Shown here piece after piece: positions 7,208 through 54,460 of a stretch of 63,796 nucleotides of DNA. Made by a program: the position numbers and the translations under genes. Source of the DNA: Kiritimatiellia bacterium. GTDB taxonomy: Bacteria; Verrucomicrobiota; Kiritimatiellia; CAIKKV01. Location of the stretch: contig JBIIYJ010000003.1 of assembly GCA_044346855.1 (NCBI GenBank), positions 1 to 63,796 on the forward strand, read 5' to 3'. Numbering within the stretch: position 1 is the stretch's first letter; every line of letters starts with the position of its first letter. Under the pieces are notes generated by a model. The model saw only the letters and a list, made by a program, of their open reading frames with translations, was not told the origin of the DNA and searched no databases.

Positions 7208-9718
7208 CTAGGACTCTGGTTGGGCGTTAAGCGGGAGAATGCAAACCAGGCGGCTTCCCTTTCCCGAGCCCGCGCTCTCCGCCCAAACCTGACCGCCGTG
7301 CATGTTGACAAACCGCCGGGTTAAAGCCAAGCCCAATCCCGTGCCGGCCGGTTTTCGGTGGGGGCTGTTTCGGACCTGGAAAAATTCCGAGAAGACGGTT
7401 TCGAGGTGATCCTTGTCGATCCCGATGCCGGAATCCGACACCACGATTTCCACGCAGGGGAACGTGACGGCCGGCTGGCGCTGGGTGATGCGAGGAAGGG
7501 AGTAGGGGGACGGGTAGGCCGGATTCTCCTGGGCGCTTTCGGCGGTTTCCAGCAGCCGGGCGGTGACCAGTATCTGTCCCCCTTCCGGCGTGAACTTGAC
7601 GGCGTTGTCCAGCAGGTTGGCGAGCACCTGCTTCAGCCGGCCCGCATCGGCCTGGAAGGTCAGGTCGCACGCGGACTCCTGGACGATCAGGCGCAGCGAC
7701 AGCCCCTGGTTCTCGCACTTGGAGCCGAAAGGGGCCAGGCACTCGTCCAGCAGCGGGCGCAGGGCTACCGGCCTGGGCTGCAGCACCAGGCTGCCGGTTT
7801 CGACCTTGGAAATCGTCAGGATGTCGTCGATCAGCCCCTGGAGGTGGAGGCCGCTTTCGAGGATGTGGTTCAGGTATTCCGCCTGTTTTGGCGCCAGCGC
7901 CCCGAAGTGGGGCTCCAGCAGCACCTCCGAGAAGCCGATGATGGCGTTGAGCGGCGTGCGCAGTTCGTGGGACATCCCGGCCAGGAAATCGTTCTTCGTG
8001 TGGCTGGCAACCTCGGCCGCGTCGTGCGCGGCCTTGAGCTCGGCGGACATTTTCTCCATCTTGGCCAGCAGTTCGTCGCGATCGCGCTCGAGGGTCAGCC
8101 ACTTTTCCTGCAGCCGGTTTTCCGCGCCGGGCCCGAAGAGCGCCAGGATGCGGACGGGGCGGCCCATTTCATCGCGGATGGCGGTGGCATCCAGCGGCGT
8201 GCTGAGGTCGCGGCCGCTTTTCAGGCGGCTCCGGACCAGGCCGAACGCGTGCCCCGTCTCCCAGAGCTGGCGCAGCAGCGAAGCGGTCTGCTCGGGGCGG
8301 TCGGTGATGGCGGCCAGCGATTGCCCGCGGACGTCCTCCTCGTGGTCGCATTCCCAGGCGCGCAGGAAGGCGGCGTTGGCGAACAGGATGACGCCGTCCG
8401 CGTCCAGCAGGGCCACGGGCTGGTCCAGGGTCCGCAGGATGGCATCCGGGAACAGCCGCTTGTCCTCCAGGCGACCCTGGCCGATCCGGTTGCGCAGCGC
8501 CGTCAGCCCGATCCCGATCGAGCGGGATAGCTGCTGCAGGCCGGCCGTTTCGTCATGCCCGAAGGCGTCCGCCTCGGCGGAAAACAGGTTCAGGATGCCG
8601 AGGGACTGGTTGCCGTCGGTGATCGGAAGACAGGCGGCGGACTCGTAGCCCCGCCGGGCCGCCTGCTCGCGCCAGGGAGCGTGGGCCGGGCTGCTCTGGA
8701 TCTGGCGCAGGATGACGGGTTCGCCCGACCGGATGGCCGCTCCCGCGGGGCCCGCTCCCGCCCCCGCCGCCCAGCTGACGTGCAGGGAGCCCAGGAAGCC
8801 GGGTTCGAAGCCCGACTCCGCGACGGGCCGGATCAGCCGCTCGGGCCCGTGGTCGGTGAGGCCGGCCCAGGCCATGCGATAGCCCCCCTGGGCCACGAGG
8901 AGGCGGCAGATCTCCTCGAACAGCGCCTTTTCCTGCTCGGCCTTGAAAATGACGGGATAGCAGGCGTTCAGCGCTTTGAGCAGCCGGATTGTCTTGTCGG
9001 TCGCCGGCGGCTCCGCCGGGAGAAGCTCCGGCGCGGGCGGCGCCTGTTCCTCTTTGTTTGCTTCCGCCAGGCTTTGCACGGCCTGGGCCAATTCGGATTC
9101 GACCCGGCCCGCGTTGGGAACCACGTTGGCCGGAAGATGGAAGGAATTGCAGTTCAGCTGGCCGCCCAGGATGATCCAGGGATGGCACTTGATCATCTCC
9201 ATGAGCAGGGCGGGGCGCAGCGAGGCCTTGCAGTAGAAGCAGACCATGATGCTCTTGGAGGCGAAGTCCTTCGTGTGAAGCGAGGACTCGAAAGTCAGCA
9301 GCGGCCGGTCGTCCCCGTGCAGGGGAAGAAAGGCGTCCATGACCGACAGCGCGCAAAGGCCGGTAAAGCCCTGGGCCGTGGCCCGGTACAGCGCCGTCTC
9401 GTAGAAGGTCAGCAGCGCCTGCGCATTGGCTCCCTCGTTCCGCCGCGCCGTCGCATCGGGAAACAGGAACGAAAGCTGCCCGCTTTTCTGAAGCCCGGTT
9501 ACATCCCTGTTGTTCCGCTGCAACTCACGGAGCAGGGAATCCTGCCCGGACTCCTCGATCACGCAGAACACCTTTTCGCGCCGATCAAGCGCCTGCTCGA
9601 CCATGGCGACCAGGACTTTCAGCTTGTCCAGTTCGTGGTCATACAGGCAAACGGCATGATCCCCAAATCGCAGAGTTGCGAAGGAGGCGCCGTCGCGTTT
9701 TTCTAGGGCGTTACTCAT
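7208..9718 (-). CDS. Sensor histidine kinase with MEDS-like N-terminal domain, GAF, PAS, HisKA and HATPase_c
   Basis: H-box SHELRTPLNAIIGFSE, N-box LLDNAVKFT, G-boxes DSGIGI and GTGLGLAL. The N-terminus DHAVCLYDHELDKL... is MEDS-like. The central region looks GAF/PAS-like. Confidence 0.85.
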   Translation of the reverse strand: MSNALEKRDGASFATLRFGDHAVCLYDHELDKLKVLVAMVEQALDRREKVFCVIEESGQDSLLRELQRNNRDVTGLQKSGQLSFLFPDATARRNEGANAQALLTFYETALYRATAQGFTGLCALSVMDAFLPLHGDDRPLLTFESSLHTKDFASKSIMVCFYCKASLRPALLMEMIKCHPWIILGGQLNCNSFHLPANVVPNAGRVESELAQAVQSLAEANKEEQAPPAPELLPAEPPATDKTIRLLKALNACYPVIFKAEQEKALFEEICRLLVAQGGYRMAWAGLTDHGPERLIRPVAESGFEPGFLGSLHVSWAAGAGAGPAGAAIRSGEPVILRQIQSSPAHAPWREQAARRGYESAACLPITDGNQSLGILNLFSAEADAFGHDETAGLQQLSRSIGIGLTALRNRIGQGRLEDKRLFPDAILRTLDQPVALLDADGVILFANAAFLRAWECDHEEDVRGQSLAAITDRPEQTASLLRQLWETGHAFGLVRSRLKSGRDLSTPLDATAIRDEMGRPVRILALFGPGAENRLQEKWLTLERDRDELLAKMEKMSAELKAAHDAAEVASHTKNDFLAGMSHELRTPLNAIIGFSEVLLEPHFGALAPKQAEYLNHILESGLHLQGLIDDILTISKVETGSLVLQPRPVALRPLLDECLAPFGSKCENQGLSLRLIVQESACDLTFQADAGRLKQVLANLLDNAVKFTPEGGQILVTARLLETAESAQENPAYPSPYSLPRITQRQPAVTFPCVEIVVSDSGIGIDKDHLETVFSEFFQVRNSPHRKPAGTGLGLALTRRFVNMHGGQVWAESAGSGKGSRLVCILPLNAQPES

Positions 9719-9834
9719 TTTTTAGAAGACAACACAAAACTATCATATAATAAACATCATGGGTGGACAGGTAAAGCCTTATTTCCCCCGATGAGCAGCA
9801 TTGAATAGTTTCATTTTTCACGTAGACTTCTTCC

Positions 9835-10932
9835 ATGAAAAAGGCCGAACGTTCGTTGATCGAGCAGGCCCGGTGCAAGAAGGGGCGCTACGGCGGCTTC
9901 TGTTTCGGCGGTTGCCGGCCGGAAGGCGTCCGCGCCCGCGACCCGCTGCCTGCGGGCACGGCCTGGCCCAACGGGGCAAAGGCGGCTCTCCTTCTGACCT
10001 TCGACGTGGAAGGCACGTATGGCAACGGGACGGGCGACATGGCCCGCGAAATCGCCAACTACCGCCGCATCTGCGCCCGGCTATCCCGCGCCGGCATCCC
10101 GGCCACCTTCAACGTCGTGGGCCGCATGGTCGAGGAGCAGGGGCCCGAATTCGTCCGCTGGATGCTCGAGTGCGGCTCGGAAATCGCGACGCACGGCTAC
10201 CTGCACGAGCTGAACGCGCGCTACGGCGGCGAGGACGTCTACGCCGGCCACTACGGGCCCGAGGAAAACCGGCAGCAGCTCCGCGACGGCGTCGCGGCGC
10301 TGGAGAAACATTTTCCCGGGACCGTGCGCGGCGCCCGCCTTCCCTACGGCCACTTCAACGAATACACCTATGACGCGATCGCGGAGCTCGGGCTGGCCTG
10401 GGCGAGCAACGTGTCGATCGACGACTTCCTGACGCCCGGCGGCGGGTTCGGCCCGGCCCCGTTCCGGATGCAGCTGGGCGAAACGGTCTATCCCGTGGTC
10501 GAGATCCCGCTCGACAGCCAGACCTACGACTGGTGCATCTGGGCGGCCGACGAGTCCGCCAACCGCCCCTTCGTCGAGGCCGTCCGCGCCTACTGCGCCG
10601 GCAAGGGAATCCCCTTTGATCGTACGCCGGCGGGCGGCGTGCCCGTCTGGCTCGCGCGCTGCCGCGATGCGATCGCCCGGCAGGCCGTCTTCACGCTGCT
10701 GTGTCACCCGATCAACCTGGTCGTGCCCTCCGAGCGCTGGAAGGACCCCGTGGAGGAGTTCCTGTTTCCGGTTATCGACGAACTGGGCCGCCTCCACCGG
10801 AGCGGGGAGGCGTTTGTCGGAACCTGCGGCCAGGTCGCCGACCGCTATCTCGCGTGGGCCAGCGGGACGCCGGGCAAGGGGCCCGCCGGACAGCCGCCGC
10901 AAACGTCAACCAAACAGGAACAGTCGCCATGA
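9835..10932 (+). CDS. Polysaccharide deacetylase (NodB-homology) family protein
   Basis: LLLTFDVEG and ATHGYLHE motifs match the NodB metal-binding pattern. Confidence 0.7.
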   Translation: MKKAERSLIEQARCKKGRYGGFCFGGCRPEGVRARDPLPAGTAWPNGAKAALLLTFDVEGTYGNGTGDMAREIANYRRICARLSRAGIPATFNVVGRMVEEQGPEFVRWMLECGSEIATHGYLHELNARYGGEDVYAGHYGPEENRQQLRDGVAALEKHFPGTVRGARLPYGHFNEYTYDAIAELGLAWASNVSIDDFLTPGGGFGPAPFRMQLGETVYPVVEIPLDSQTYDWCIWAADESANRPFVEAVRAYCAGKGIPFDRTPAGGVPVWLARCRDAIARQAVFTLLCHPINLVVPSERWKDPVEEFLFPVIDELGRLHRSGEAFVGTCGQVADRYLAWASGTPGKGPAGQPPQTSTKQEQSP

Positions 10933-11981: not shown

Positions 11982-12200
11982 GAGTTCAGCGGGACCTACG
12001 GGACCGCTGCCGAGGGGGATGGAGTTCAGCGGGACCTACGGGACCGCTGCCGAGAGGGATGACAGCGGTCCCGTAGGTCCCGCTGAACCCTGCTCGGCGT
12101 AAGCGGATCGGGCAACTTCAGTCTGAAGCAAGAGGCCTTGACGCCTGCTCGCGGTACCGCTGCCGATGGGGTTGACAGCGGTCCCGTAGGTCCCGCTGAA
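11982..12200. repeat. REP/BIME-like cluster: 25-nt element TTCAGCGGGACCTACGGGACCGCTG twice forward and twice inverted
   Basis: Forward copies at 11985-12009 and 12025-12049. Inverted copies at 12063-12087 and 12176-12200. Copies 2 and 3 form a perfect 25-bp stem with a 13-nt loop. Copy 4 is preceded by a truncated partner (12155-12162). The cluster lies between convergent genes. Confidence 0.9.
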
Positions 12201-12217: not shown

Positions 12218-13243
12218 CTACTTCTCGCGTCTCGCTTCCTCGACAAAGGCGCGGATATTGGCCTCGGGGGTGTCGCGCGGAACCATTTCGCCCGAGCACA
12301 GGATGTGGCCGCCCTGGACGCTCACGGTATCCAGGATGTGGCGCACTTCGGCCCTCACCAGGTCGGGCGTGCCGTTCATCAGCGTCAGGATCGGGTTCAC
12401 GTTGCCGGACAGGCAGACGCGCTTCCCCACGGCTTTGCGCGCTGCGGCCAGGTCGATGCCGGGCCCGCAGTTGACAATTGAAAAGCCGACCTCGGCCAGT
12501 ACGTCCAGCATGGCGGGCAGCTCCTCGCTGTTGTGGCAGTGGACGATTCCGCCGGCCTCCCGGTACGCCTTGGCCACCGCGGCCGCGGGCACGAAGGCGA
12601 AGTCCCGGTAGAGAGCCGGGCTGATCAGGTGCCCCGAGGCGTTGCAGTCGCCAAGCCAGATGGCGTCGGCCCCGGCCTTGAGCTGGTCCAGGCCGAAGCG
12701 GGTCTGGTACTCCGTGAAGAAGCGGAGGGCGTCGCGGACGAGCTCCGGCCGGTCGTAGAGGGCCAGCATGGTCTCCTGGATCCCGAAGGCCAGCGTCACC
12801 GAGCTGAAGGGCGCGGCCGTCCGGCCGGTGACGCAGACCGTGTCCCCAAAACGGGATTTCAGGCCGGCGATGGCGTCGAGCAGGACGCGCATCCGCCCCT
12901 CCACGCGGTAGCCGTGTTCGCGAAGGCGGCGCAGCGAGCCTTCCTCGAGCGGCAGGTAGCCGCAGGTGGCGGGCAGGATATCGCCGCCGCCTTTGACCCC
13001 GACGCCGAGCGGCTCGAATTCCAGGCAGTCGTCCACCTGGAGCCAGGCCCAGTCGTAGTCGAACCGGGCGATCGCCTCGCTCTGGACGCGGATCATCTCC
13101 TTTGCGTCGGAGTTGTAGCGGTCGTACCGGCTTCCGGCCAGCCGCACGTCGGCCTCCTCGCTGCACATCAGCACGGGCATCCGCCGCGGCCGCTCCATCC
13201 GGACCGCCCGCCGCAAATCATCCAGAACGCCTTGATAGGCCAT
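12218..13243 (-). CDS. URO-D-like (uroporphyrinogen decarboxylase / MtaA-type methyltransferase family) protein
   Basis: 341 aa. DAIWLGDCNASGHLISPALYRDFAFVPAAAVAKAYREAGGIVHCHNSE and the tail HILCSGEMVPRDTPEANIRAFV are typical of this family. Confidence 0.7.
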   Translation of the reverse strand: MAYQGVLDDLRRAVRMERPRRMPVLMCSEEADVRLAGSRYDRYNSDAKEMIRVQSEAIARFDYDWAWLQVDDCLEFEPLGVGVKGGGDILPATCGYLPLEEGSLRRLREHGYRVEGRMRVLLDAIAGLKSRFGDTVCVTGRTAAPFSSVTLAFGIQETMLALYDRPELVRDALRFFTEYQTRFGLDQLKAGADAIWLGDCNASGHLISPALYRDFAFVPAAAVAKAYREAGGIVHCHNSEELPAMLDVLAEVGFSIVNCGPGIDLAAARKAVGKRVCLSGNVNPILTLMNGTPDLVRAEVRHILDTVSVQGGHILCSGEMVPRDTPEANIRAFVEEARREK

Positions 13244-13262: not shown

Positions 13263-14612
13263 TCAGATGCCGGCCTTCAGTTCCCGGACGGTGTCGATCA
13301 CAGCCGAGGCCATGTATTTCAGCTCGCTCTTCGTCAGGGGATAGAGCGGCAGGTGCGTGAAGCCGTGGTTGAAGACCTGTTCCGTTTTCGGGCACGTTTT
13401 CGCGATCGCGTCGGGCTTGTACCCGAGCTGCTCCAGGATGTGGAAGCGGTACATCGGGCCGAAGTGCGGGATTTCCGTGACGCCCTTTTCCTTCAGCTTG
13501 CGGCGGACCGCCTGGATGTCCGCGCCGATCGTCTTCGGGTCGATGCGCAGGGGGTAGAGGTGGTGGCTGCTGCGCGTGCGGGCGGTGTCGGCGGGGGGAA
13601 GCAGGATGCCCGGCACCTTGGCGAAGGCGGCGTTCAGGTAGTCGGCGTTGCGGCGGCGGGCCTCCAGGATCTTGTCGAGGCGCTTGAACTGGAGGCAGAA
13701 GCCGAGCCCCTGGATCTCCGAGACGGAGTGGTTGTTCGGGACCTGGGGCTTGCCGAAGCGGTCGTCGAGGGCGGTGATGTCGTAGAGCCAGTTGGGGATG
13801 GCGCGGGTGAAGTCGAGCCCCAGGAACCGCGCCTTGGCGAACTGGGCGCCGGCGGGGAGGTTGGAGACCAGCAGGCCGCCTTCGCCGAAGGAGTTGATGT
13901 TCTTCACCTCGTGGAAGGAGTAGCCGCCGAAGTGGCCGATGGTGCCCAGCTGGCGGCCCTTGTAAGTGGCGCCGAGGGCGTGCGCCGCGTCCTCCATGAC
14001 GTAGACGCCCCGCTTGGCGGCGACCTTCATGAGGGCGTCCATGTCGCACGCGTAGCCGCCGATGTGGACCGGCACGATGACCCGGGTGCGGGGCGTGATC
14101 TTGCGCGCCACGTCGGCGGCGTCGATGCCGAGCGTGCGCGGGTCGACGTCGGCGAAGACGACCTTGGCGCCGATCATGAGCGGGTAGGCCATGGTGGCCA
14201 CGAAGGTGATGGCGGGGACGATGACCTCGTCGCCCGGGCGCAGGCCCGCGAGCTTGTAGCCGATCTCCATGCCGGCGGTCCACGTGTTGAGCAGGCAGGC
14301 GTGCTTCACCTTCAGCTTGGCGCAGGCTTCCTCTTCGGCCTTCTTGACCCAGCTGCCCAGGGTCAGCTTGGCGGCGCCGGCGCTTTGCCCGGCCAGGCCG
14401 CGGAGGGCAACTTCCGTTTTCTTCAGGGCCGCCGCGTAGGCCTTGGCATCGGGGGCGGGCGGGAGGAGGAACTTGACCGTTTCCAGCACGTCGGCTCCGG
14501 AAAAGCGTTCGCCGACCGTGTGCCAGGGGACCCGGGCAGGGCCCGCGCTGTAACGGAACTCGATCGCGGCCTGCTTGGCGCTCGTTTTCTTCACGCGTGC
14601 TTTCCCGCTCAT
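13263..14612 (-). CDS. DegT/DnrJ/EryC1/StrS family PLP-dependent sugar aminotransferase
   Basis: ITFVAT...VFADVD...PVHIGG...EDAAHALGA...GGYSFHEVKN, including the PLP-lysine context. Start placed at ATG 14612 behind an AAGGAGA SD; the track start 14645 lacks an SD. Confidence 0.85.
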   Translation of the reverse strand: MSGKARVKKTSAKQAAIEFRYSAGPARVPWHTVGERFSGADVLETVKFLLPPAPDAKAYAAALKKTEVALRGLAGQSAGAAKLTLGSWVKKAEEEACAKLKVKHACLLNTWTAGMEIGYKLAGLRPGDEVIVPAITFVATMAYPLMIGAKVVFADVDPRTLGIDAADVARKITPRTRVIVPVHIGGYACDMDALMKVAAKRGVYVMEDAAHALGATYKGRQLGTIGHFGGYSFHEVKNINSFGEGGLLVSNLPAGAQFAKARFLGLDFTRAIPNWLYDITALDDRFGKPQVPNNHSVSEIQGLGFCLQFKRLDKILEARRRNADYLNAAFAKVPGILLPPADTARTRSSHHLYPLRIDPKTIGADIQAVRRKLKEKGVTEIPHFGPMYRFHILEQLGYKPDAIAKTCPKTEQVFNHGFTHLPLYPLTKSELKYMASAVIDTVRELKAGI

Positions 14613-14771
14613 GGATCGTCTCCTTGGCTGTGATGCGACATTCAATACGCTGGATAAATGCTACAGGGGACGGGGCGGATGTAAAGCCGATTGTGAATGA
14701 AACTGAAGTTGGTTCCGTCCGAATAGTAGAACCAAGAGGGCAATGATCTTGGCTGTTTCTGCCGGCTTTTC

Positions 14772-15176
14772 CTATGGCACATCATAAAAACGCGTCCACC
14801 ATCGGTTGTTCTTTTCCGGCTTGAAAAGGAAAATCTTCCTTCCCAAATCGGACTGGATTACCGCAGCGGAGTAGGACTCCATACGACCAGTGTTCAGTTG
14901 GATATGCCGTGTCTCCAGAATCTCATAAGTCTTAATGTGACCTTGGTCAAATCCTGTCATCTTCACTGCTTGCCCGAGAACCGCTTCCGGCTTCGCATCC
15001 CGTGGAAGGTCAATATCGGGATATAGTCCGTTGATCCAGAGACCATTACTCGCATTCAACTTTCGGACGATGGTGCCGATGGGGTCATCCACGGGAGCCT
15101 TAGTTTCGGCCATAACCGATCTGACCGGCAAATTGGCAACCAGCAGGGCGAGGAGGAATGGAAGGAGGCGGTTCAT
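14772..15176 (-). CDS. Small exported protein, unknown family
   Basis: ATG 15176 overlaps the upstream stop (ATGA). Signal peptide MNRLLPFLLALLVANLPVRSVMA. No recognisable motif. Confidence 0.6.
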   Translation of the reverse strand: MNRLLPFLLALLVANLPVRSVMAETKAPVDDPIGTIVRKLNASNGLWINGLYPDIDLPRDAKPEAVLGQAVKMTGFDQGHIKTYEILETRHIQLNTGRMESYSAAVIQSDLGRKIFLFKPEKNNRWWTRFYDVP

Positions 15177-15630
15177 CTGGGCGTCTCCCCCTTGGGCTTT
15201 GCAGGAAACAACTTCATATTGCCCTTCGATCGAGTTTTGTTTAAGGCTGGTCTGTCAACTGTGAAGGCGACATTGCTCGATTGGAAGCCACCTCCGATCC
15301 ATGTGGCTTTGTACTGACCCTCTGGAAGCGTGCCCGCATTGATTATCTTCCAGAATGTAACAAGCATGGCTTTTGAATCGAAATTTTTGAGATCATCATC
15401 GGAAAAGGTGAGCGGGATGTTGGTTTGAACGGAACCGCTGATTTCAATGAAGGATTTGCTGATCTCTTTTGAGGTGATTAAATGAGGATCGTTTTTCACT
15501 GAAAACATTGTGGTGATCTTTATGTTGTCATGGTCGTCCAGAGCGATGCCAGCAATCTTTATGGTTGTATTGGATGCGACAGCCAGATCGGTGCTAGCAG
15601 GGTGAGGAGGAATGGAAGTAGGCGGTTCAT
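15173..15630 (-). pseudogene. Small exported protein gene whose signal peptide and mature part are in different frames (1-nt deletion)
   Basis: ATG 15630 overlaps the upstream stop (ATGA) and encodes MNRLLPFLLTLLAP..., which stops after 23 codons (15559). The 155-aa track ORF 15173..15640 is offset by 1 nt. DNA alignment to the 18391 paralogue shows one base missing near 15589-15594. Confidence 0.55.
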
Positions 15631-16031
15631 CGTGTCGCATCTCCGATTGCTCGTTTGACCGCTTCGATTGAGTTGGTGGGTTGCACTTCCTCGGGGAAAG
15701 TCAGTTCGAATCCATTTTTCGATGATCGCCATAGAAGCCAGATAGAAGGGGTGGCAACCCGAGGTGTAAAATCGGACACATTTTCCATAACGGGTGCTAC
15801 GGTCCATGAGACCGGGATGTTGTTGGTGGCAGGTCCCTTCAGCATTTCCTGAACGATGATCCGAGAAAAAGCGATTTTGGTGCCATTCGTCATTCTGGTA
15901 TGGATGTTGGAGGCGGTGCCGACAACGATAACCTTGCTGGCCTTGGCAAGGTTCTCCAGGGATCGCTCGTTTCGTTCTCCCAATGAAACCGCCGACACAA
16001 GAGCCAGCACCATGATTGCGTATCGTTTCAT
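15627..16031 (-). CDS. Small exported protein, unknown family
   Basis: Signal peptide MKRYAIMVLALVSAVSLG, a GAGGAAA SD, and promoter-like module P1 upstream. Confidence 0.6.
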   Translation of the reverse strand: MKRYAIMVLALVSAVSLGERNERSLENLAKASKVIVVGTASNIHTRMTNGTKIAFSRIIVQEMLKGPATNNIPVSWTVAPVMENVSDFTPRVATPSIWLLWRSSKNGFELTFPEEVQPTNSIEAVKRAIGDATR

Positions 16032-16120
16032 CGTGCGGTTTCCTCTCGCTCTGTTGGCGTTGTGCCTCCCGAGTGGCCGTCCAGCGTCACGGGGGGGGGT
16101 GCATCCCGTATCCGCTCCCG

Positions 16121-16148
16121 ATCATACGCCGATCCGTTCCTGATTCAA
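16121..16148 (-). promoter_or_regulatory. Promoter-like module P1 (TTGAAT-N16-TATGAT)
   Basis: Minus strand reads gcTTGAATcaggaacggatcggcgTATGATcggg. It lies about 90 nt upstream of ATG 16031. Confidence 0.5.
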
Positions 16149-16210
16149 GCCCCGTTCACAGGGGCTTGATGCCCTTATCCGTTGAGCAGGAACGCCTGCC
16201 AGAAACCTGA

Positions 16211-16903
16211 TCAGGTGATCCATTCACTCACCGATATTACAATCCAGCCCTCGCTCGTTTTCCGTATCACGATAGAGTAGCCCCGTCCGCTCCCAACAGT
16301 TACCTTAACATCCCCGTCTGCCATCTTCTCGATCGCATTCACATGCCGATAAGTTGGAGGCAGGTATTGACTCATCTTGGCGTTCTCAAGGAAGATTTTC
16401 GTAATCGCATCACCGATGCCTGGCAATTCGGCCGGGGCAAGATCACCGCGGGCATAGAAGATACTATCCATCGCATTTGAATTTATGATCCCATAATTTC
16501 CTGAACCTTGATCTGCTAACAAGTACCATCGCCCTGCAATGACGTATCCGGACAACAAGCCCCGCCGATCGTAATCCGCTTGAACTCTATCCCGCATCGT
16601 GGCGGAATCAAATGTATAGCATATGAAAAATTTGCCGATGCTGGCCACCTCGCTCGTAGAACCTGAACGAAAATACACGCAAGCTGACGGAACACGCATA
16701 GGCTTTTTATCAAGCAGGCGTTCTTGAATGAGCCAAACCGTTTGGCTGGAGGAAACTGCTTGGGCTAGGGCAAGAATGTCCGAAACATCGTTGGATGAAA
16801 GACTTCCCTTGATGATCGGCGAATTGACCGAACCTGTCAGCGTTTCGCCATTCACCCCAAGAACTGTCATGGCAATTAAAAAGGCTGTCAGAAGGCGGTT
16901 CAT
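16211..16903 (-). CDS. Exported protein, unknown family
   Basis: ATG 16903 (MNRLLTAFLIAMTVLGVNG signal peptide) follows a GGGAGA SD. The track start 16909 is a TTG. Confidence 0.6.
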   Translation of the reverse strand: MNRLLTAFLIAMTVLGVNGETLTGSVNSPIIKGSLSSNDVSDILALAQAVSSSQTVWLIQERLLDKKPMRVPSACVYFRSGSTSEVASIGKFFICYTFDSATMRDRVQADYDRRGLLSGYVIAGRWYLLADQGSGNYGIINSNAMDSIFYARGDLAPAELPGIGDAITKIFLENAKMSQYLPPTYRHVNAIEKMADGDVKVTVGSGRGYSIVIRKTSEGWIVISVSEWIT

Positions 16904-16945
16904 TGACAATCTCCCAGCAGAGGGTGCATCTCGTATCCGCTCACG

Positions 16946-16973
16946 ATCATACGCCCTCTCGTTCCCAGATCAA
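16946..16973 (-). promoter_or_regulatory. Promoter-like module P2 (TTGATC-N16-TATGAT)
   Basis: Minus strand reads gcTTGATCtgggaacgagagggcgTATGATcgtg. It lies 43 nt upstream of ATG 16903. Confidence 0.5.
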
Positions 16974-17107
16974 GCCGTATCCCGAGCCATTGAGGTTCTC
17001 CCCGACCGACTGCCAATGGGTTCAGCGGGCTCGCCCAGGACGCCACAAGGTGGTAGCCCGTCCTTACCGCCCCGAGGGGGGGGCGAAGTCCCGCAGTCTG
17101 GTTGATT

Positions 17108-17425
17108 TCAATAACTGAAGCCAGAGGTGCTCTTCCGAACCTTCTTGTCCGATCCAACGGAAAGCCATAGTTCCTTGCCTTGGGTGGAAGAATAGTGCAA
17201 CTCCCAATCTCCTGCTGAAAAAGTACGGGCAAGAGAGGCCCCGATACAGAAGAATTCCACGTCATCTTGTTTCAAATCAGCCTCTGCCAATGTCAGGGCT
17301 TCTTTTAACGAGACTGGGGGTTTCTGGTCGTTGTTCCACCCCGCATTTTTAGCAAAAGCGGTAACTACGCCTATCAGGACACAGAGTGCGATAACTGCCG
17401 GAAGACTAATTTTAATTTTGCCCAT
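17108..17425 (-). CDS. Small exported protein (weak PepSY-like appearance)
   Basis: Signal peptide MGKIKISLPAVIALCVLIGVVTAFA. The mature part VSLKEALTLAEADL...WELHY...LWLSV vaguely resembles PepSY-type domains. Confidence 0.5.
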   Translation of the reverse strand: MGKIKISLPAVIALCVLIGVVTAFAKNAGWNNDQKPPVSLKEALTLAEADLKQDDVEFFCIGASLARTFSAGDWELHYSSTQGKELWLSVGSDKKVRKSTSGFSY

Positions 17426-17512
17426 CTCATCTGATCCTTATGTCTGCGAGCATTCCCGATTCCTCCTCACTCTACCGCCCCGCCTCGTTCCCGTCCCAGC
17501 GTCAGGGCGGGA

Positions 17513-18391
17513 TTACTGTAGCAATGCGATGCTGATCGAAGCGATATAGATTGACGGCATTGATAGCCTTTTCTCGAAGAAATCAAGTTCCTGGTTGTTC
17601 CCAGCCCGAATCAGGATGCCTAAACCTTTATCCCAATACATCCTATTCGTTTCCCATCCTGACCCGAGCACGAAGAAATCACGGATGTTTGTCCCTGATC
17701 CATAAAGGCTTTCAATCAGCGTCGTATTTACCAGATAAAATCTGAAAGCAGGGACTTTATTCTCGTCGCATAATGCCTTTGCTTTTATCATCATGCCAAA
17801 GTGTGCGATCGGCTTTACATCCAAGATTCGATTTGTCGCCTCTTCCAATACCGTGCACCTACCCGTTTTCTCGTTGAAATCAGTTAAAAGGAATGACCTT
17901 CCCATCATCTTAAAAGAATCACCAACCCTGACTGTCACATCAGGTTGCGGAGAGTTCCCCCGAAAGGTTGCAAATTTCTCTGTGTAGGGCAAACGTTCGC
18001 CTTTCCGCATTTTGAATTGGCGATCTCCAGATTGGATTGTGAGTTCTGTTACATCAGTCTTCACCTCGTTCCCCTGAATCACTCGGGTTTCCTGCTTTTC
18101 ATCAACGGCGATAAGCCTGAAACCCCTTACCTCTTTCCCGATTTTCAGAATTGAGTTTGTTGGTATAGAAGGCGGAATATCGGAGATTTCCCAGCGGATC
18201 GGGGGCTCGTAAAACATCCCATACCACAAGAGCAATGGCTCGCATCTAACAGATACCACGGCAAAGTCCATATTCGTGACTAAATCGGGCTGGGCGAGTT
18301 CAACCCCTGGAACCTGTTTCTCATTGGTGCCCTCTGCCCCCGCCAGATCGACGACCAGTAGGGCGAGGAGGAATGGAAGGAAGCGCTTCAT
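17513..18391 (-). CDS. Exported protein, unknown family (292 aa)
   Basis: Signal peptide MKRFLPFLLALLVVDLAGA, a GGGAGA SD, and promoter-like module P3 upstream. Confidence 0.65.
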   Translation of the reverse strand: MKRFLPFLLALLVVDLAGAEGTNEKQVPGVELAQPDLVTNMDFAVVSVRCEPLLLWYGMFYEPPIRWEISDIPPSIPTNSILKIGKEVRGFRLIAVDEKQETRVIQGNEVKTDVTELTIQSGDRQFKMRKGERLPYTEKFATFRGNSPQPDVTVRVGDSFKMMGRSFLLTDFNEKTGRCTVLEEATNRILDVKPIAHFGMMIKAKALCDENKVPAFRFYLVNTTLIESLYGSGTNIRDFFVLGSGWETNRMYWDKGLGILIRAGNNQELDFFEKRLSMPSIYIASISIALLQ

Positions 18392-18415
18392 TGGTGTCTC
18401 CCGTGTCTGCCCCCG

Positions 18416-18443
18416 ATCATACGCCGATCCGTTCCTGGATCAA
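18416..18443 (-). promoter_or_regulatory. Promoter-like module P3 (TTGATC-N16-TATGAT)
   Basis: Minus strand reads gcTTGATCcaggaacggatcggcgTATGATcggg. It lies 25 nt upstream of ATG 18391. Confidence 0.5.
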
Positions 18444-18517
18444 GCTCCGTTCACGAGGGCGTGGGGTGCCGATCGACTCGGCCCCGTCCAGCATCAGGGC
18501 GGAGGAACGCCGTATGG

Positions 18518-19012
18518 TCAATATGCGATCACGCAACCACGAGGCCATGCTTTCAATGGTTCTGTCCATCCACAGGGAAGACGCCCAACCCGATATATCT
18601 CAAGAAGGCGGGTAAAGAACCTGGGCACCTTTGGAAAGACAGTCGCATATGCGTTTTCCAAAGCTGCTCTGTTAATGTCCAGCAATACACTCTTGCTGAC
18701 ATCCGGAAGACCTGCCTTGGTCATAGCCTCATAGATTAAAAGATGCAGTTCCTCTAGATGAGCGAGCGATTCTTTTGCTAGGTTGTTCCAGTGCCCTCCG
18801 TACGATGCGTAATGATGCTTTGCGAGGTAGCCTGTTAAATCGCCTTGTGCTTCCGTGCGAACATCAGCCCATTGCGGGCTTGATAACAGCAAGAGGGCTT
18901 GTTCTTGAAGTTGGACAAAACGAATATCCGTACTGCCATCTGCAGGCGTCCCGCATCGTGAGAACCATTCGATTGACCGGACATTATCGTAGAATGCCAG
19001 ATTGAGTTTCAT
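18518..19012 (-). CDS. Cytoplasmic 164-aa protein, unknown family (immunity-protein-like by context only)
   Basis: No signal peptide, predicted helical, ends ...VGRLPCGWTEPLKAWPRGCVIAY. Promoter-like module P4 lies upstream. Confidence 0.55.
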   Translation of the reverse strand: MKLNLAFYDNVRSIEWFSRCGTPADGSTDIRFVQLQEQALLLLSSPQWADVRTEAQGDLTGYLAKHHYASYGGHWNNLAKESLAHLEELHLLIYEAMTKAGLPDVSKSVLLDINRAALENAYATVFPKVPRFFTRLLEIYRVGRLPCGWTEPLKAWPRGCVIAY

Positions 19013-19042
19013 TGTGCGGTGTTCCTGAATGCAAACTACCCG

Positions 19043-19071
19043 ATCCTACCGCCCTTTCACCACCAACTCAA
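19043..19071 (-). promoter_or_regulatory. Promoter-like module P4 (TTGAGT-N17-TAGGAT)
   Basis: Minus strand reads gcTTGAGTtggtggtgaaagggcggTAGGATcggg. It lies 31 nt upstream of ATG 19012. Confidence 0.45.
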
Positions 19072-19482
19072 GCCGTATCCCATGCCCCTTGGGGTCCCCC
19101 TGTCCGTCCGCCGAGGGGGTCAGCGGGATCCCCCCCAGGACGCCCACGGCGGGAGGGGCAGTCGGCACCGTCCCGGCCACGGGCGGGATCGCCTTGAAAC
19201 CCGCCCACGGCCCCCGCCAAGGGCGAGATGGGCGGAGGGAGTCCCATGTGCAACAACCGCCCCATGTCTGCCCCACAAGCCCGCCTGAACCCGCCGAGGG
19301 GGGAGCGGGTGGCGGGGAAGACGGTCTCGCAGGAGCTCGACCCTCCGGATGGCAGGCACAGCCGATAGCAAATAGCGGATGGGCACGAATTCCCCCGTTG
19401 ACCGGGAGAGAGGAAGACGGCACTATTCCCGGATTGTGCGGCTCGGTGAGCCAAACGGTTTTCAACGACAGGGCGGGGCAAT

Positions 19483-20427
19483 GTGAAACAGGCGGACGGA
19501 CGGCTCGATCTTGCGCGCATTCCAGCTCCGGTTCTTTTCCGGGGCGACCCCCGGTTCGCTTTCCGCGATCCGGCCGTCCACTATCACGACGGCGTTTTCC
19601 GCCTGTTCTTCACCCTCGTCGAGCGCGAGCCGGACGGCCGGTACTTCCTGTATCTGGCCGCCAGCCGGAGCCGGAACCTGGCGGACTGGACCGAGCCCCG
19701 CCGCCTCACCCCGCGCGACCAAGCCCTCAACTTCTCGAGCCCCGGCAACGTCGTCCGCCACAACGGCCGCTGGGTGCTCTGCCTGCAGACCTACCCCACG
19801 CCCGGCAACGAACTGTACGGCACGGAGGCGGCGCGGCTGTGGACCATGACGAGTTCCGATCTCGACACCTGGGGCGAGCCGGAACTGCTGCGGGTCAAGG
19901 GGCCCGACGTCCCGGTGGCGGAGATGGGACGCATGATCGACCCTTTTCTGATCCGGGACCGGACCGATTCCTCCAAATGGTGGTGCGTCTACAAGCAGAA
20001 CGGGATGAGCCGCTCCTGGAGCCGCGATCTGGCAAGTTGGACCTGGGCCGGCTCCGCCCGGGCGGGCGAGAACGCCTGCCTCCTGGACGGGGGCGAAGAC
20101 TACCTGCTGTTCCATTCGCCCGCCAACGGGATCGGGCTCAAGCGGTCGCGCGATTTGGTCGAATGGCAGGACGAAGGACTGCTCGATCTTCCACAGGCGC
20201 AATGGCCCTGGGCCGGCGGCCGGTTGACCGCGGGATTCGTGCTCGATATGCGGGCTCATCCGGACCTCGGCTGTTACCTGCTCTTCTTCCACGGTACGCC
20301 CAAGGCGGCGACCGCCTCGCGCGAGACCCACGGCGAGGCGAGCCTGGCTCTGGCCTGGAGCCGGGACCTGAAGCGGTGGCGCTGGCCGGGCGACGGGGCC
20401 GGGGATTCCGGGAGGGTGACCGTATGA
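19483..20427 (+). CDS. Five-bladed beta-propeller glycoside-hydrolase-like protein (GH43/GH130-like)
   Basis: GTG start. FRDPAVHYHDGVFRLFFT, MIDPFLIRD and DYLLFHSP repeats are typical of GH43-type propellers. Confidence 0.5.
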   Translation: MKQADGRLDLARIPAPVLFRGDPRFAFRDPAVHYHDGVFRLFFTLVEREPDGRYFLYLAASRSRNLADWTEPRRLTPRDQALNFSSPGNVVRHNGRWVLCLQTYPTPGNELYGTEAARLWTMTSSDLDTWGEPELLRVKGPDVPVAEMGRMIDPFLIRDRTDSSKWWCVYKQNGMSRSWSRDLASWTWAGSARAGENACLLDGGEDYLLFHSPANGIGLKRSRDLVEWQDEGLLDLPQAQWPWAGGRLTAGFVLDMRAHPDLGCYLLFFHGTPKAATASRETHGEASLALAWSRDLKRWRWPGDGAGDSGRVTV

Positions 20428-21654: not shown

Positions 21655-21704
21655 AGGATTAGGATTAGGATTAAGATTAAGATTAGGATTAAGATTAAGA
21701 GATT
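21655..21704 (+). repeat. Hexamer array (ARGATT)x7 plus a variant unit, abutting the G-rich RBS of the next gene
   Basis: aggatt aggatt aggatt aagatt aagatt aggatt aagatt aagagatt, then gggggacaccATG (21715). Confidence 0.95.
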
Positions 21705-21714
21705 GGGGGACACC

Positions 21715-22467
21715 ATGAAAGTATCCGTTTGTGCCGATATGTTGTTCAGCGATATGCCGACTGCGGCCGCCATGGAGAAGATCAAGGCTGCCGGTGCGGA
21801 CGCGGTGGAGTTCTGGAAGGCGGCGGGCAAGGATCTTGGCGCCATTGCGGAGGCCGGCAAGCGGCTCGGGTTGCCTGTTTCCGTTTTCTGCTCGCCCATG
21901 ATGCCCCTCGTGGCGGCCGACTCCGCCGTCAAGTATCCCGAGGCGCTGAAGGAGCTGGTGCCGGCGTGCGACAAGCTCGGCTGCCGCACGCTCATCGCCA
22001 CCAGCGGCATTCCGCAGGGCGGGCTGACGCCGTCGCAGATGCACGACAATCTCCGCGCCGCGATCGAGGCGGCCGTGCCGGTGGCGGAGGCGCACGACCT
22101 GATCCTGGTGCTGGAGCCCCTGAATGCCTCCGAGCTGAGCTACCTGCGAAGCAGCCGCGAGGCGTTCGACCTCTGCCGGATGATCAACAGCCCGCGGGTC
22201 AAGGTGCTCTACGACCTGTACCACATGCAGTACATGGAGGGGAATCTCATCAACACCATCCGGGCCAACCTGCCGCTGATCGGCCATTTCCACGCGGCCG
22301 ACCTGCCGGCGCGCACGGCCCCGGGGCAGGGGGAGATCAACTTCCCGAATATCGCCCGGTTCCTGGCCGGCAGCGGCTACGCCCATTATTTCGGGCTCGA
22401 ATACAGGCCCGGCCCCGACCGGGACGGCGAACTGAAGGCTGTGATCAGCCAACTGAAGCGGGCCTGA
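21715..22467 (+). CDS. Hydroxypyruvate isomerase-family (Hyi/OtnI-like) xylose-isomerase-fold TIM-barrel protein
   Basis: Start at MKVSVCADMLF. VLEPLN, VKVLYDLYHMQYMEGNL and IGHFHAADLPARTAPGQGEINF closely follow the Hyi-family pattern. Confidence 0.8.
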   Translation: MKVSVCADMLFSDMPTAAAMEKIKAAGADAVEFWKAAGKDLGAIAEAGKRLGLPVSVFCSPMMPLVAADSAVKYPEALKELVPACDKLGCRTLIATSGIPQGGLTPSQMHDNLRAAIEAAVPVAEAHDLILVLEPLNASELSYLRSSREAFDLCRMINSPRVKVLYDLYHMQYMEGNLINTIRANLPLIGHFHAADLPARTAPGQGEINFPNIARFLAGSGYAHYFGLEYRPGPDRDGELKAVISQLKRA

Positions 22468-23510
22468 TGAAACTCGTACCGCCTCCCGCCCTTGACTTGG
22501 GCGGGCTGACCGACTGCCTGCTGCGGCGCGGAACGCCCGCGCGGGTCTTCTCGTTCGAGCACAGCGTGGCCGACTCCATGAAGGCCGCGCTGATCAAGCG
22601 TTTCGCCCTTGGCGCGCCCGCCCCGGCCTCCGACGTGGAGCGGACCGGCCGGAACGAGATCGCCCTGCAGCGCTTCCTGGGCCAGGAACTGCTGCGCCTG
22701 CGGCTTACGGGCGGGCGGGTCGTCCACGCCATGCCCAGGAAGGCGGGTCAGTGGGAAAACGAGCATGCGGGGTGCATCCAGTCGATGGCCGACTTCGACC
22801 GCTTTCCCTGGCCTTCGGTCGACGGCATCGACTTCCGGCAGCTCGACTGGTTCGAGCGGAACCTGCCCGACAACCTGGGCGTCATCGCGACGGTCCACGT
22901 CTGGGAGGACATCCGCGCCCTCTTCGGCTACGAGACCTTCTGCTACAAGCTGTACGAGGAGCCGGAGCTGGTCGAGGCGGTGGCTCGCAAGGTGGGGGAG
23001 TTCAACCTGGCCCTGGCCCGCGCGCTCGGCGGCTACAAGCGGGTTTACGCCGTCTACGGCGCAGATGATTTTGGGTACAAGAGCGGACTCATGGTCCCGC
23101 CCGCCGACCTGCGGCGGCTGGTGCTGCGGTGGCACAGGGCGATCTCGGAGCAGGCGCACGCGGACGGGAAGCTGTACCTGCTGCACGCCTGCGGGAACCT
23201 GCGGGAGATCATGGACGAGCTGATCGACGAGGTGAAGATCGACGCCAAGCATTCCTTCGAGGACGTGATCATGCCGGTGACGGAGGCCAAGCGGATCTAC
23301 GGGGGGCGGGTGTCGCTGCTGGGCGGGCTGGACGTCGACCTGGTCGCGCGGGCGGGCGAGGCGATCATCCGCGGCAAGGTGCGCGAGGTGCTGACGGTGT
23401 GCCAGCCCGGGGGCGGGTATTGTCTGGGGCTTGGCAACTGGGTGACCGACTACATCCCCATCGACAGCTATCTGGCGGTGCTCGACGAAGGCCGCCGCTT
23501 CGCCGGGTGA
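22467..23510 (+). CDS. URO-D-like family protein
   Basis: The ATG shares 1 nt with the upstream TGA. GADDFGYKSGLMVPPADLRR...LYLLHACGNLREIMDELI...GGYCLGLGNWVTDYIPIDSY. Confidence 0.65.
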   Translation: MKLVPPPALDLGGLTDCLLRRGTPARVFSFEHSVADSMKAALIKRFALGAPAPASDVERTGRNEIALQRFLGQELLRLRLTGGRVVHAMPRKAGQWENEHAGCIQSMADFDRFPWPSVDGIDFRQLDWFERNLPDNLGVIATVHVWEDIRALFGYETFCYKLYEEPELVEAVARKVGEFNLALARALGGYKRVYAVYGADDFGYKSGLMVPPADLRRLVLRWHRAISEQAHADGKLYLLHACGNLREIMDELIDEVKIDAKHSFEDVIMPVTEAKRIYGGRVSLLGGLDVDLVARAGEAIIRGKVREVLTVCQPGGGYCLGLGNWVTDYIPIDSYLAVLDEGRRFAG

Positions 23511-23513
23511 CGG

Positions 23514-24566
23514 TTAAGTCAGTTTCCCGTCCAGCAGCGGCTCGAGGTGGTGGAAATAGCATTCCGCGATCAGCTGGGAGCCGTAGGCGTTGGGGTGGAT
23601 GTCGCCCTTCAGTCCGTCGGGGTTTCCGGGCGGATTGGCGGTTCTCCGCATTCCGATCTTGTGGCCCGGGTCGTTGTGCCAGTCCCAGTCGCCCGCTTTC
23701 GCCCGGTCGCGCATGACAGCGTCAAGGTCGATCAGGGGCAGCTTCCGCTCGGCAGCCACGGCGCGGGACTGGTTGTTGAACACCTCGGTTCCGGCGGCCG
23801 GAATGGTTGTTGAAATAACGAGCTGCGCCTTGGGGAAGCGGCGCTGGATCCGGTCGCAGGCCTCGTGCAGGAGGGGGCCGAAGGTCTCGGGCTTGAGTTT
23901 CGGGTTCCGGTCGTTGAGCCCGTAGCGGATCATGGCGATGTCGCACCGGGGAAGGGCGGCCAGCTCGCGGTCGAGGCGGCCGGACGCCAGCAGGCGCGTC
24001 AGCGTTTCCCCGCCCTCGGCGAGGCCGTGCACGTCGATCCGGCTAGTGGCGAAGCGGTCCCGCAGCAGCAGTTCCAGCCTGCGGGTCAGGCGGTGCTCGT
24101 AGGGCAGGTAGCAGGTCATGTCCGTGCTGTCGCCGAAGACGGCCACCACGGCGTCGGCATCGTCCGGCCAGGGCGGCAGGGCCTCCACCTTCAGGTTGCG
24201 GATAAGGAGGCGCCCCTTCGCGTGGAAGCGGACGTGCAGCTCGGCCGTGCGCAGGTCGCCGCGGGCCCGGGCGTCGCAGCTGAGCGTGCGCCAGGGCGCG
24301 GTGCCGGTGTCCGGGTAGAGGAACATATCCCAGAACACGGGGCCGTCGGCGTATTCCAGGTTGAAGAAGATCGCGCAGGCCATGCCCGGGACGCCGGTGA
24401 CGCCTTCCGTGCGGACCTCGGCCGAGATGCGGACGGGGCCCGCGGCGGGGCCGGCCACGGGGAGTCGTCGGATCACGTCGGGCAGCGCCAGGTTAGCGGC
24501 CGGGTTGGCGAGGTCGAGCGGTTCGGTCAGTTCGGCCAGGAGGCGGGGGGCGGACTGTTCGGGCAT
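23514..24566 (-). CDS. SGNH/GDSL hydrolase with an N-terminal beta-sandwich-like domain
   Basis: Block I VAVFGDSTD, block III GLNDRN and block V GDIHPNAYG. Confidence 0.7.
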   Translation of the reverse strand: MPEQSAPRLLAELTEPLDLANPAANLALPDVIRRLPVAGPAAGPVRISAEVRTEGVTGVPGMACAIFFNLEYADGPVFWDMFLYPDTGTAPWRTLSCDARARGDLRTAELHVRFHAKGRLLIRNLKVEALPPWPDDADAVVAVFGDSTDMTCYLPYEHRLTRRLELLLRDRFATSRIDVHGLAEGGETLTRLLASGRLDRELAALPRCDIAMIRYGLNDRNPKLKPETFGPLLHEACDRIQRRFPKAQLVISTTIPAAGTEVFNNQSRAVAAERKLPLIDLDAVMRDRAKAGDWDWHNDPGHKIGMRRTANPPGNPDGLKGDIHPNAYGSQLIAECYFHHLEPLLDGKLT

Positions 24567-31811: not shown

Positions 31812-31978
31812 AGAAGGGTTCAGGGTTCAGGGTTCGGGGGGCAGGGGGAAGAGAAGGGTTCAGGGTTCAGGGGTCAGCGGTTTTAAGAGATAGGACCTAT
31901 AGGGCCTATAGGACCTATTGTTGAACCCCGCCCCCTGAACCCCGCCCCCTGAACCCCGAACCCTGAACCCCGAACCCT
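31812..31978. repeat. Intergenic spacer built from heptamer arrays (GGGTTCA / TGAACCC) in inverted orientation around (ATAGGNCCT)x3
   Basis: The left arm is 2 x GAGAA(GGGTTCA)2GGGKTCR. The centre is ataggacct atagggcct ataggacct (31890-31916). The right arm is 8 in-phase heptamers YGMMCCC (31922-31977). The spacer sits between convergent stop codons. Confidence 0.95.
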
Positions 31979-31980
31979 GG

Positions 31981-53063: not shown

Positions 53064-53073
53064 GTCTCCCCCC

Positions 53074-54429: not shown

Positions 54430-54460
54430 AGCAACTATCTCCTTTCTGCCATTGTCTAAA

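Follow-up and report, generated by a model that had tools for sequence, protein, structure and literature searches.

The stretch of DNA analyzed here (the window) comprises the 63,796 nucleotides at positions 1 to 63,796, forward strand, of contig JBIIYJ010000003.1 in the Kiritimatiellia bacterium assembly GCA_044346855.1. It contains an islet of seven small minus-strand genes, located between a DegT gene (13263–14612, minus strand) and a GH43-like gene (19483–20427, plus strand). As delimited by sliding-window GC and repeat analysis, the whole islet (14646–19140, minus strand) consists of low-GC cargo and GC-rich repeated spacers; the low-GC part stops at 19012, and the upstream spacer ends, at ~19140, with ~130 nt that repeat the spacer between the genes designated E and D. 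The sliding-window GC is 0.44–0.58 from ~14600 to 19000 against 0.63–0.73 in the flanks, and the seven open reading frames (ORFs) have a GC of 0.47–0.51 and a third-codon-position GC (GC3) of 0.46–0.59, compared with a GC3 of 0.85–0.94 for the flanking DegT, URO-D-like and GH43-like genes. The compositional island is thus real and strong, as stated in a preliminary description made from the letters alone, although its estimate of 40–47% GC for the coding parts was slightly low (47–51% as measured).

The seven co-oriented ORFs, A to G, encode proteins of 134, 155, 134, 230, 105, 292 and 164 aa, in agreement with the seven minus-strand ORFs of 105–292 aa first described between DegT and the GH43-like gene. 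They tile one strand without gaps, and an RBS-like sequence (ribosome-binding site) precedes each of them. Four spacers of 126, 87, 204 and 179 nt, with a GC of 62–67%, are present, three of which carry a promoter-like module; the C/B and B/A junctions overlap and are spacerless. A G9 run (16091–16099) and a G8 run (17076–17083) were located, the window holding four runs of at least eight in total, and both tract lengths are constant among 14 contigs. The early account of high-GC spacers with G8–G9 runs therefore holds, but the designation of these spacers as REP-like (repetitive extragenic palindromic) is unsupported, because the remaining 59 kb of the window contain none of these repeats; nor did the repeat analysis yield a convincing palindrome.

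Searches of all seven islet proteins against Pfam, NCBIfam, PHROGs and PADLOC gave nothing significant, and a tblastn search of plasmids with G and D returned no match. The proposal that none of the proteins has a recognizable family stands for these libraries but not for G, which belongs to a large uncurated family. No match was obtained in a tRNA scan and an Rfam search of the window, no attC site was found, and the one inverted repeat reported in 14400–19600 does not involve the spacers. Recombinase families are absent from the Pfam lists of the genes called in 8518–29012, and no recombinase or integrase is among the 25 of 55 families listed for the rest of the window, so that a distant integrase may exist. 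Like the preliminary description, we find no toxin, recombinase, attC site or tRNA.

Three kinds of 5′ module recur within the islet. The first is a promoter-like module, GCTTGA-N4-GGAACG-N4-GGCGTATGATCG, equivalent to TTGATC/TTGAAT-16-TATGAT, which lies on the minus strand upstream of F (18393–18463; TTGATC-16-TATGAT at 18443–18416), D (16923–16993; TTGATC-16-TATGAT at 16973–16946) and C (16098–16168; TTGAAT-16-TATGAT at 16148–16121). These copies are 82–94% identical over 34–71 nt, with a 23-nt core identical in two of them, where shuffles expect 0 matches. A diverged copy, TTGAGT-17-TAGGAT, was recognized by alignment before G (19043–19071, minus strand), and the ~130 nt ahead of it are 72% identical to the E–D spacer. 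Four transcription units had been described as beginning with nearly the same promoter; three of these promoters (F, D and C) are near-identical, but the fourth, that of G, is diverged. In the 5′ leader of C, a C9 run on the minus strand, which is the G9 run of the plus strand at 16091–16099, follows the promoter-like module. The promoter and spacer repeats are not found again in the rest of the window, pattern scans of viral contigs for the signal-peptide and promoter modules gave 0 hits, and the promoter pattern in a metagenome collection without the source contigs retrieved one unrelated, ordinary promoter (L092). In the D–C spacer a hairpin overlaps the –35 box, but the G–F copy does not keep it, and a conserved structure was therefore rejected.

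The second module consists of the RBS GGGAGA followed by ATGAA(C/G)CGC and about 50 nt of signal-peptide-coding DNA, with the sequence ATGAASCGCYTNCTTCCATTCCTCCTC. The signal-peptide DNA is common to A, B and F (77–85% identity over 52 nt, 0 matches expected by chance), and D has only its first ~14 nt (MNRLL); the reuse of this DNA by four ORFs is thus upheld for three, and for the start of the fourth. No similarity is detected after ~55 nt, and the mature parts of the islet proteins show no mutual similarity, which bears out that unrelated mature domains lie behind the shared DNA. Because the GC3 of the signal-peptide segment of A and F (0.74) exceeds that of their cargo (0.52–0.56), both genes are mosaics. 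The third module is a leader, AGGAA(C)ACCGCAC(A/G)ATGAAAC, common to G and C. Duplication of 5′ modules within the array, as proposed at the outset, is consequently backed by two families of modules, one of promoter, RBS and signal peptide that recurs in F, D, B and A, and the leader that recurs in G and C.

Gene G (18518–19012, minus strand) encodes a 164-aa cytoplasmic protein that, judged from its homologues, its AlphaFold2 (AF2) model and the gene context, is of orphan immunity type and fits the description of Imm24. An exhaustive phmmer search places it in a family of 448 representative clusters at E ≤ 1e-3, nearly all of them single-domain proteins of ~165 aa. The distribution is patchy, with named members from Azonexus, Clostridium, Lacrimispora and Gemmataceae, and none in the viral contigs scanned. 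Residues P145-C146-G147-W148 are invariant or nearly so in alignments of 78 and of 12 relatives, and every invariant residue of the family is present in G. Models of Imm families have no match among the 78 relatives, and a PDB sequence search with the family gave nothing significant.

The family is linked to toxins by its neighbors elsewhere. In four independent loci (L085, L090, L091 and L093/L094), a G homologue lies directly downstream of one and the same toxin C-terminal (CT) domain: it overlaps the stop codon of the upstream toxin gene in L085 and L093/L094, starts 14 nt after the gene of a 605-aa protein in L090, and starts 10 nt after a 153-aa ORF in L091 (Clostridium sp. CTA-7). The ~120-aa CT domains that end all four upstream genes share 46–91% mutual identity (L090:6609–6983, L091:6529–6990 and L093:5007–5357, and also in L085). 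In L093 the domain forms the C-terminus of a protein with RHS repeats, at least 1785 aa long (RHS_repeat E 1.6e-24), and the CT-plus-immunity module there has a GC of 53–54% in a contig of 64.6%; the GC of G is 49%. The L091 neighborhood, which includes Imm48, SUKH/SMI1_KNR4, Endonuclea_NS_2, RNAse_A_bac and Colicin-DNase/WHH, is a classic toxin/immunity cassette array. Separately, at 9101–9601 and 9695–10126, the metagenome-derived contig L090 contains, close to its G homologue, a second and unrelated ORF of 166 aa, which comes after 257-aa and 59-aa ORFs, and an IS200-type Y1 transposase; this may be another toxin/immunity cassette.

The CT domains share the pattern QxHHLNQxAAYRDVIP...G(A/S)PH..AH.S.E.FW...VPR.P.RI, always with a G-family gene directly after them, and their invariant residues H13, H14, N16, H47, H51 and Y73 form the signature [A/S/R]HH-N-H-H-Y. 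Judged from these residues, the signature appears typical of AHH-type HNH/EndoVII nucleases and agrees with "[AG]HH, N, H, H, Y", the pattern given for Tox-AHH in the literature (Zhang et al. 2012, PMC3482391). Tox-REHH, which likewise pairs with Imm24 (bioRxiv 10.64898/2026.09.22.753552), was considered as the partner toxin and rejected, the spacing of its residues R46, H52, E53, H102 and H121 being unlike HH-N...H-3-H.

Upstream of G itself, 24 nt (19013–19036, minus strand) would encode the 3′ end of a toxin gene, A-F-R-N-T-A-Q-stop, and also hold the RBS of G, with a CAATGA that overlaps the G start codon. The corresponding end in L086, A-I-R-N-L-A-Q-stop, is identical at 18 of 24 nt. An orphan homologue from Azonexus (L088), with the same CAATGA overlap, retains ~25 toxin codons upstream, ...GGIEVPRAPSPIRNFAQ followed by a stop codon, ending PIRNFAQ-stop. 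A remnant as short as the eight codons ahead of G is suggestive only. The islet copy of the promoter-like module lies 6 nt upstream of it. Since the window contains no toxin CT domain, we regard G as an orphan immunity-type gene, one that would have been captured with the last codons of its toxin gene.

The AF2 model of G (pLDDT, the predicted local distance difference test, 97.3) is helical with small C-terminal strands: helices at 4–11, 35–42, 45–65, 67–98, 105–124 and 131–140, and strands at 145–148 and 160–162. Foldseek analysis, which had been suggested for the predicted structures of all seven proteins, was run for G and A; with A nothing significant was found, and with G the top three matches, the only notable ones, are chains of RhsI2, at weak scores (probability 0.82–0.92, template modeling (TM) score 0.42–0.51). 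RhsI2 is the immunity protein of the atypical HNH DNase Rhs2CT of Serratia marcescens (PDB 8CM0/9T38; bioRxiv 10.1101/2025.10.28.685041). Imm24 proteins are described as mostly helical, with a C-terminal β-hairpin and a PxG motif in which x is mostly C, and pair with Tox-AHH, Tox-SHH and Tox-HNH (PMC3482391). The G model agrees with this in being mostly α-helical with small C-terminal strands, its P145-C146-G147 is such a motif (extended by W148), and its homologues come after CT domains of the [A/S/R]HH, HNH-like type, in one case at the end of an RHS-repeat protein. On the other hand, no curated hidden Markov model (HMM) from Pfam or NCBIfam matches G, nor does any curated model match its 77 relatives, and the assignment to Imm24 is by verbal description; G also differs from Imm24 and RhsI2 in having no toxin partner in the window and no sequence match to a PDB chain.

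Six ORFs had been credited with classical signal peptides; five (A, C, D, E and F) have an intact signal-peptide-like N-terminus, and that of B is out of frame. A (14772–15176, minus strand), identified by homology and modeled with AF2, is a 134-aa exported protein that starts with the signal-peptide module. Its mature domain is 56–57% identical to the last ~105 residues of a 757-aa Peptidase_M56 (BlaR1-like) protein, P0003, encoded at L083:6001–8274 beside a BlaI-type repressor. This domain is thus found in two settings, appended to the extreme C-terminus of a sensor and as a free-standing exported protein. The AF2 model of A (pLDDT 78) is an α+β domain of two helices and four strands. F (17513–18391, minus strand), a 292-aa exported protein by homology and signal peptide, also starts with the signal-peptide module, and its residues 1–196 are 40–45% identical to a 192-aa lipoprotein-like protein, P0002, whose gene neighbors encode a membrane protein and an ankyrin-repeat lipoprotein. 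PDB sequence searches with A, D and F gave nothing significant.

In B (15173–15640, minus strand), a 155-aa ORF, the signal-peptide module (15562–15630) encodes MNRLLPFLLTLLAPIWLSHPIQP and a stop codon in a frame different from that of the mature ORF, owing to the loss of 1 nt in comparison with A and F. Fourteen independent metagenome contigs carry this same deletion, and from its reading frames B is probably a decaying gene. C (15627–16031, minus strand) is an exported protein of 134 aa; its signal peptide is unrelated, and its leader with the initial codons nearly duplicates the leader of G. D (16211–16903, minus strand; 230 aa, exported) has the N-terminus MNRLL, that is, the start of the signal-peptide module only. 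E (17108–17425, minus strand; 105 aa), whose length alone is not significant, has a signal-peptide-like N-terminus and a spacer of its own without a promoter module. A concatenated query of A, B, C, D, E and G returned only the A-related BlaR1-like protein; no homologue of B, C, D or E was obtained with this query, which missed even the self proteins.

The locus recurs in JGI, ENA and Logan assemblies (at least 14 contigs) with 99.95–100% identity over the islet, and the islet protein clusters have 1–3 members, with single-residue variants. The only population variant among the islet contigs is found in L084 (JGI 3300044611, contig Ga0453738_0114356), where an ISL3-type insertion sequence (IS), joined at ~16879, lies within the signal-peptide region of D. 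Its end reads ...TTATGCGGAAAGAGCC, it carries a partial 340-aa transposase on the opposite strand, and the IS is absent elsewhere in the window. The flanks are ordinarily chromosomal, with PGA_cap, GH43-like and URO-D-like genes on one side and DegT, URO-D-like, GFO_IDH_MocA and polysaccharide deacetylase genes on the other, and the rest of the window is housekeeping (among 25 of 55 families listed). The islet is bracketed by URO-D-family paralogues (12218–13243 and ~22467–23514), which suggests that it is inside one pre-existing functional neighborhood. The closest relatives of the DegT gene product, 83–84% identical, are encoded in L018 and L019, metagenome-assembled genomes labeled Verrucomicrobiota and Kiritimatiellia. 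Both lack the low-GC island upstream of DegT, and none of the 65 DegT loci encodes the islet proteins; as the regions upstream of DegT in L018 and L019 do not align with that of the window, the insertion boundary is not definable. The comparison of the locus that had been called for to trace cassette gain and loss thus gave a partial answer, namely no cassette variation in 14 contigs of the same clone and two relatives without the island.

Some other features of the window stand apart from the islet. Two Hsp20/α-crystallin-like genes (53238–53711 and 53980–54477, minus strand) lie in a milder low-GC stretch (0.48–0.56) that is unrelated to it. Intergenic AT-rich hexamer tandem repeats occur, in a 65% GC genome, at 21657–21700 and 53072–53098, with the units (GATTAA)x7.3 and CCTAAT/CTTAAT, the latter being the GATTAA unit on the other strand. 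At 31815–31979, also intergenic, adjacent inverted heptamer arrays, (AGGGTTC)x~10 and then (GAACCCC / TGAACCCCGAACCC)x~8, form a long potential palindrome, and a 40-nt unit occurs twice, at 97% identity, just downstream of a URO-D-like gene (11982–12061).

We compared the islet with known gene arrays. Poly-immunity loci consist of tandem co-oriented immunity genes with no interrupting toxin genes or cassettes, small intergenic distances that imply a single polycistronic message and strain-variable content (Zhang et al. 2012, PMC3482391); the lineages for which that work reports extended loci of this type are limited to Proteobacteria, Bacteroidetes, Firmicutes and Actinobacteria (PMC3482391). 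With these loci and with orphan immunity islets or acquired interbacterial defense (AID) clusters (Ross et al. 2019, bioRxiv 10.1101/471110) the islet shares tandem co-oriented unrelated small genes, foreign composition, at least one orphan immunity gene and the absence of a toxin gene, containing neither a toxin CT domain nor a toxin-family match beyond the eight-codon remnant. It differs in that one of its seven genes is of immunity type, in its promoter-like modules in place of a tight operon, in its intergenic distances, which at 126, 87, 204 and 179 nt are not small, and in its host, a member of the Planctomycetes–Verrucomicrobia–Chlamydiae (PVC) superphylum. Arrays of the rAID-1 type, found in Bacteroidales, are co-directional, with skewed GC, repetitive intergenic sequences and a 5′ XerD-like recombinase (Ross et al. 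2019, bioRxiv 10.1101/471110). The islet has the co-directional genes, the low GC and the repetitive intergenic sequences of these arrays but not their defining recombinase, the upstream gene being a divergent GH43-like one; its repeats are promoter and leader copies, and it has seven genes as opposed to up to 31.

Other systems resemble the islet in part. Orphan CT/immunity modules of rhs and cdi loci also have an immunity gene after a truncated 3′ piece of a toxin gene (eight codons in the islet, ~25 in L088), but no rhs or cdi main gene is near the islet, and here the remnant directly adjoins a promoter module that is itself a duplicate. Integron cassette arrays, which have an IntI integrase with attI and an imperfect inverted repeat (attC) 3′ of each cassette, differ from it: no integrase is nearby, the spacers contain no attC-type inverted repeats, and the repeats are 5′ and promoter-like. 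In the Borrelia upstream homology box (UHB) and in Mycoplasma vlp/vsp genes, a conserved promoter, RBS and signal peptide precede dissimilar mature regions in a tandem cluster. The islet, by contrast, shows no sign of phase or antigenic variation, its G8 and G9 tracts being constant in 14 contigs. Precedents exist for orphan immunity genes, Imm24-like proteins and poly-immunity arrays; the novelty lies in the host lineage, the missing recombinase, the repeated use of promoter, leader and signal-peptide modules, and a toxin–immunity pair outside the curated HMM libraries.

Based on these observations, we tentatively propose that the islet is a small orphan-immunity or heterogeneous poly-immunity-type defense array without a recombinase, a reading that we consider a serious possibility, though short of probable. 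The foreign DNA would sit within a core sugar-metabolism neighborhood of an uncultured Kiritimatiellia-like (PVC) bacterium. G would bind and neutralize incoming AHH-type DNases delivered by competitors, and the six downstream genes would encode Sec-exported periplasmic or envelope proteins with the same defensive function, such as the binding of effectors that act in the periplasm. For A–F an immunity role is by association only, which limits our confidence to the level just given. The anatomy of the locus suggests that its units were built by copying resident 5′ ends, comprising a sigma-70-like promoter, RBS leaders and one signal-peptide-coding segment, before unrelated low-GC cargo, and that no site-specific recombinase was involved in the assembly. 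At least four separately promoted units would result (G; F; D; and C-B-A), with E either within the unit of F or on an unrecognized promoter of its own, and DegT might be read through from the C-B-A unit. The array may be partly decaying, given the frameshift in B and the IS in D in part of the population. With respect to the orphan-immunity idea of the preliminary description, the evidence speaks for it in the case of G, the gene that had been set apart there as cytoplasmic (homologues that follow an Rhs-borne toxin domain, the eight-codon remnant and a toxin-free window), and is neutral for the six exported proteins, to which the idea had been applied.

Several observations weigh against this proposal. 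Immunity is linked to one of the seven genes, G. Neither Pfam nor NCBIfam has a match for G, nor Pfam for 77 of its aligned relatives, and the CT domain lacks matches in Pfam (AHH, Tox-SHH and HNH included, at E ≤ 1), NCBIfam and PDB sequences. The fold match between G and RhsI2 is weak (E 0.013–0.11, root-mean-square deviation 7.7–9.4 Å), and the fold search with A was uninformative, with no significant PDB match and weak, partial PUR-alpha/NTF2-like similarity only. A–F have no immunity-family match in Pfam, NCBIfam or PADLOC, and the sole known homologues of A and F have no adjacent toxin. For B, C and E no homologue was found and the lengths alone are not significant; since the concatenated query missed self proteins, its result is no evidence that B–E lack homologues, and these proteins are weakly tested. 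The spacers of 87–204 nt, three of them with a promoter-like module, depart from the tight operon packing of poly-immunity loci, and no recombinase is adjacent to the islet. Cassette variation between strains is not seen, because all contigs derive from the same clone.

The main rival is a generic, horizontally acquired islet of exported ORFans without any toxin–immunity role, in which G is a hitch-hiking orphan at one end and the exported proteins could function in envelope or surface remodeling, phage-receptor masking, or nutrient binding or sensing. This is possible, if somewhat doubtful. It agrees with the lack of immunity-family matches for A–F, with the A domain being the extracytoplasmic end of a BlaR1-type sensor and with the ordinary-looking lipoprotein that is the homologue of F, and composition indicates foreign origin only, not function. 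However, the promoter and leader modules of G recur at the exported genes, which ties all seven into one co-evolving array, and the islet matches the published pattern of immunity arrays: co-oriented heterogeneous small genes, skewed GC, repeated spacers and an orphan immunity gene at the head.

Less likely is that the islet is decaying foreign DNA with little or no present function, in which B, C and E are not real genes. The frameshift in B and the disruption of D by an IS in one contig fit such decay, as do the absence of homologues for B, C and E and the disagreement of gene callers on G, E and B in one assembly (L001). By our estimate, ORFs of 105–155 codons are expected by chance in 4.4 kb of DNA with ~49% GC. 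On the other side, the ORFs tile one strand, with RBS-like sequences and five signal-peptide-like N-termini; genuine homologues exist for A, F and G, none of the invariant residues is missing from G, and the locus is identical in many samples.

A bolder version of the defense-array proposal, unlikely as a whole, holds that the islet exemplifies recombinase-independent domestication of foreign genes: a resident "expression and export adaptor" of host-like GC, made up of promoter, RBS and signal-peptide-coding DNA, would have been copied repeatedly and unrelated low-GC ORFs fused behind it, so that a set of periplasmic proteins, perhaps immunity proteins, arose beside the captured immunity gene of an Rhs toxin. 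The islet would then be the first poly-immunity-type array of this kind known from the PVC superphylum, and its exported members would belong to entirely new families.

Two further explanations appear quite improbable. In one, A, B, D and F are paralogues whose mature parts diverged under diversifying selection while the signal peptide was conserved. Conserved signal peptides with diverged mature parts are known from conotoxin superfamilies, Mycoplasma Vlp/Vsp and Borrelia UHB lipoproteins, and the shared RBS and signal-peptide DNA (77–85% identical, with no similarity after ~55 nt) is of this kind. Yet the mature lengths range from about 110 to 270 aa, the homologues of A and F occur in distinct N-terminal contexts (the C-terminus of BlaR1, and a lipoprotein with its own lipobox-type signal), which points to cargo of independent origins, and the GC3 of 0.74 in the signal peptide against 0.52–0.56 in the cargo indicates a mosaic, not divergence in place. 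In the other, equally improbable, a site-specific tyrosine recombinase acting on the repeated spacers would have assembled an integron-like or rAID-like cassette array, for which the co-directional ORFan cassettes, the skewed GC and the repetitive intergenic sequences, as in rAID-1, can be cited, but 8518–29012 contains no recombinase gene, the repeats are promoter-like and 5′ of genes instead of attC hairpins, the only reported inverted repeat in 14400–19600 leaves out the spacers, and the C/B and B/A junctions are spacerless.

If one of the rival explanations is true, the locus is an ordinary small genomic islet. If the defense-array proposal is true, orphan and poly-immunity arrays, a defense against contact-dependent toxins known mainly from Bacteroidales, Proteobacteria and Firmicutes, would extend to an uncultured Kiritimatiellia-like bacterium, and this array would have been assembled by promoter, leader and signal-peptide copying instead of by an associated recombinase. 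The six exported proteins may represent periplasmic families not described before. Independently of how the islet is read, the analysis provides a testable pair, an AHH-like CT toxin with the pattern QxHHLNQxAAYRD...PH..AH and a ~165-aa PCGW-motif protein, represented by about 450 clusters across phyla.

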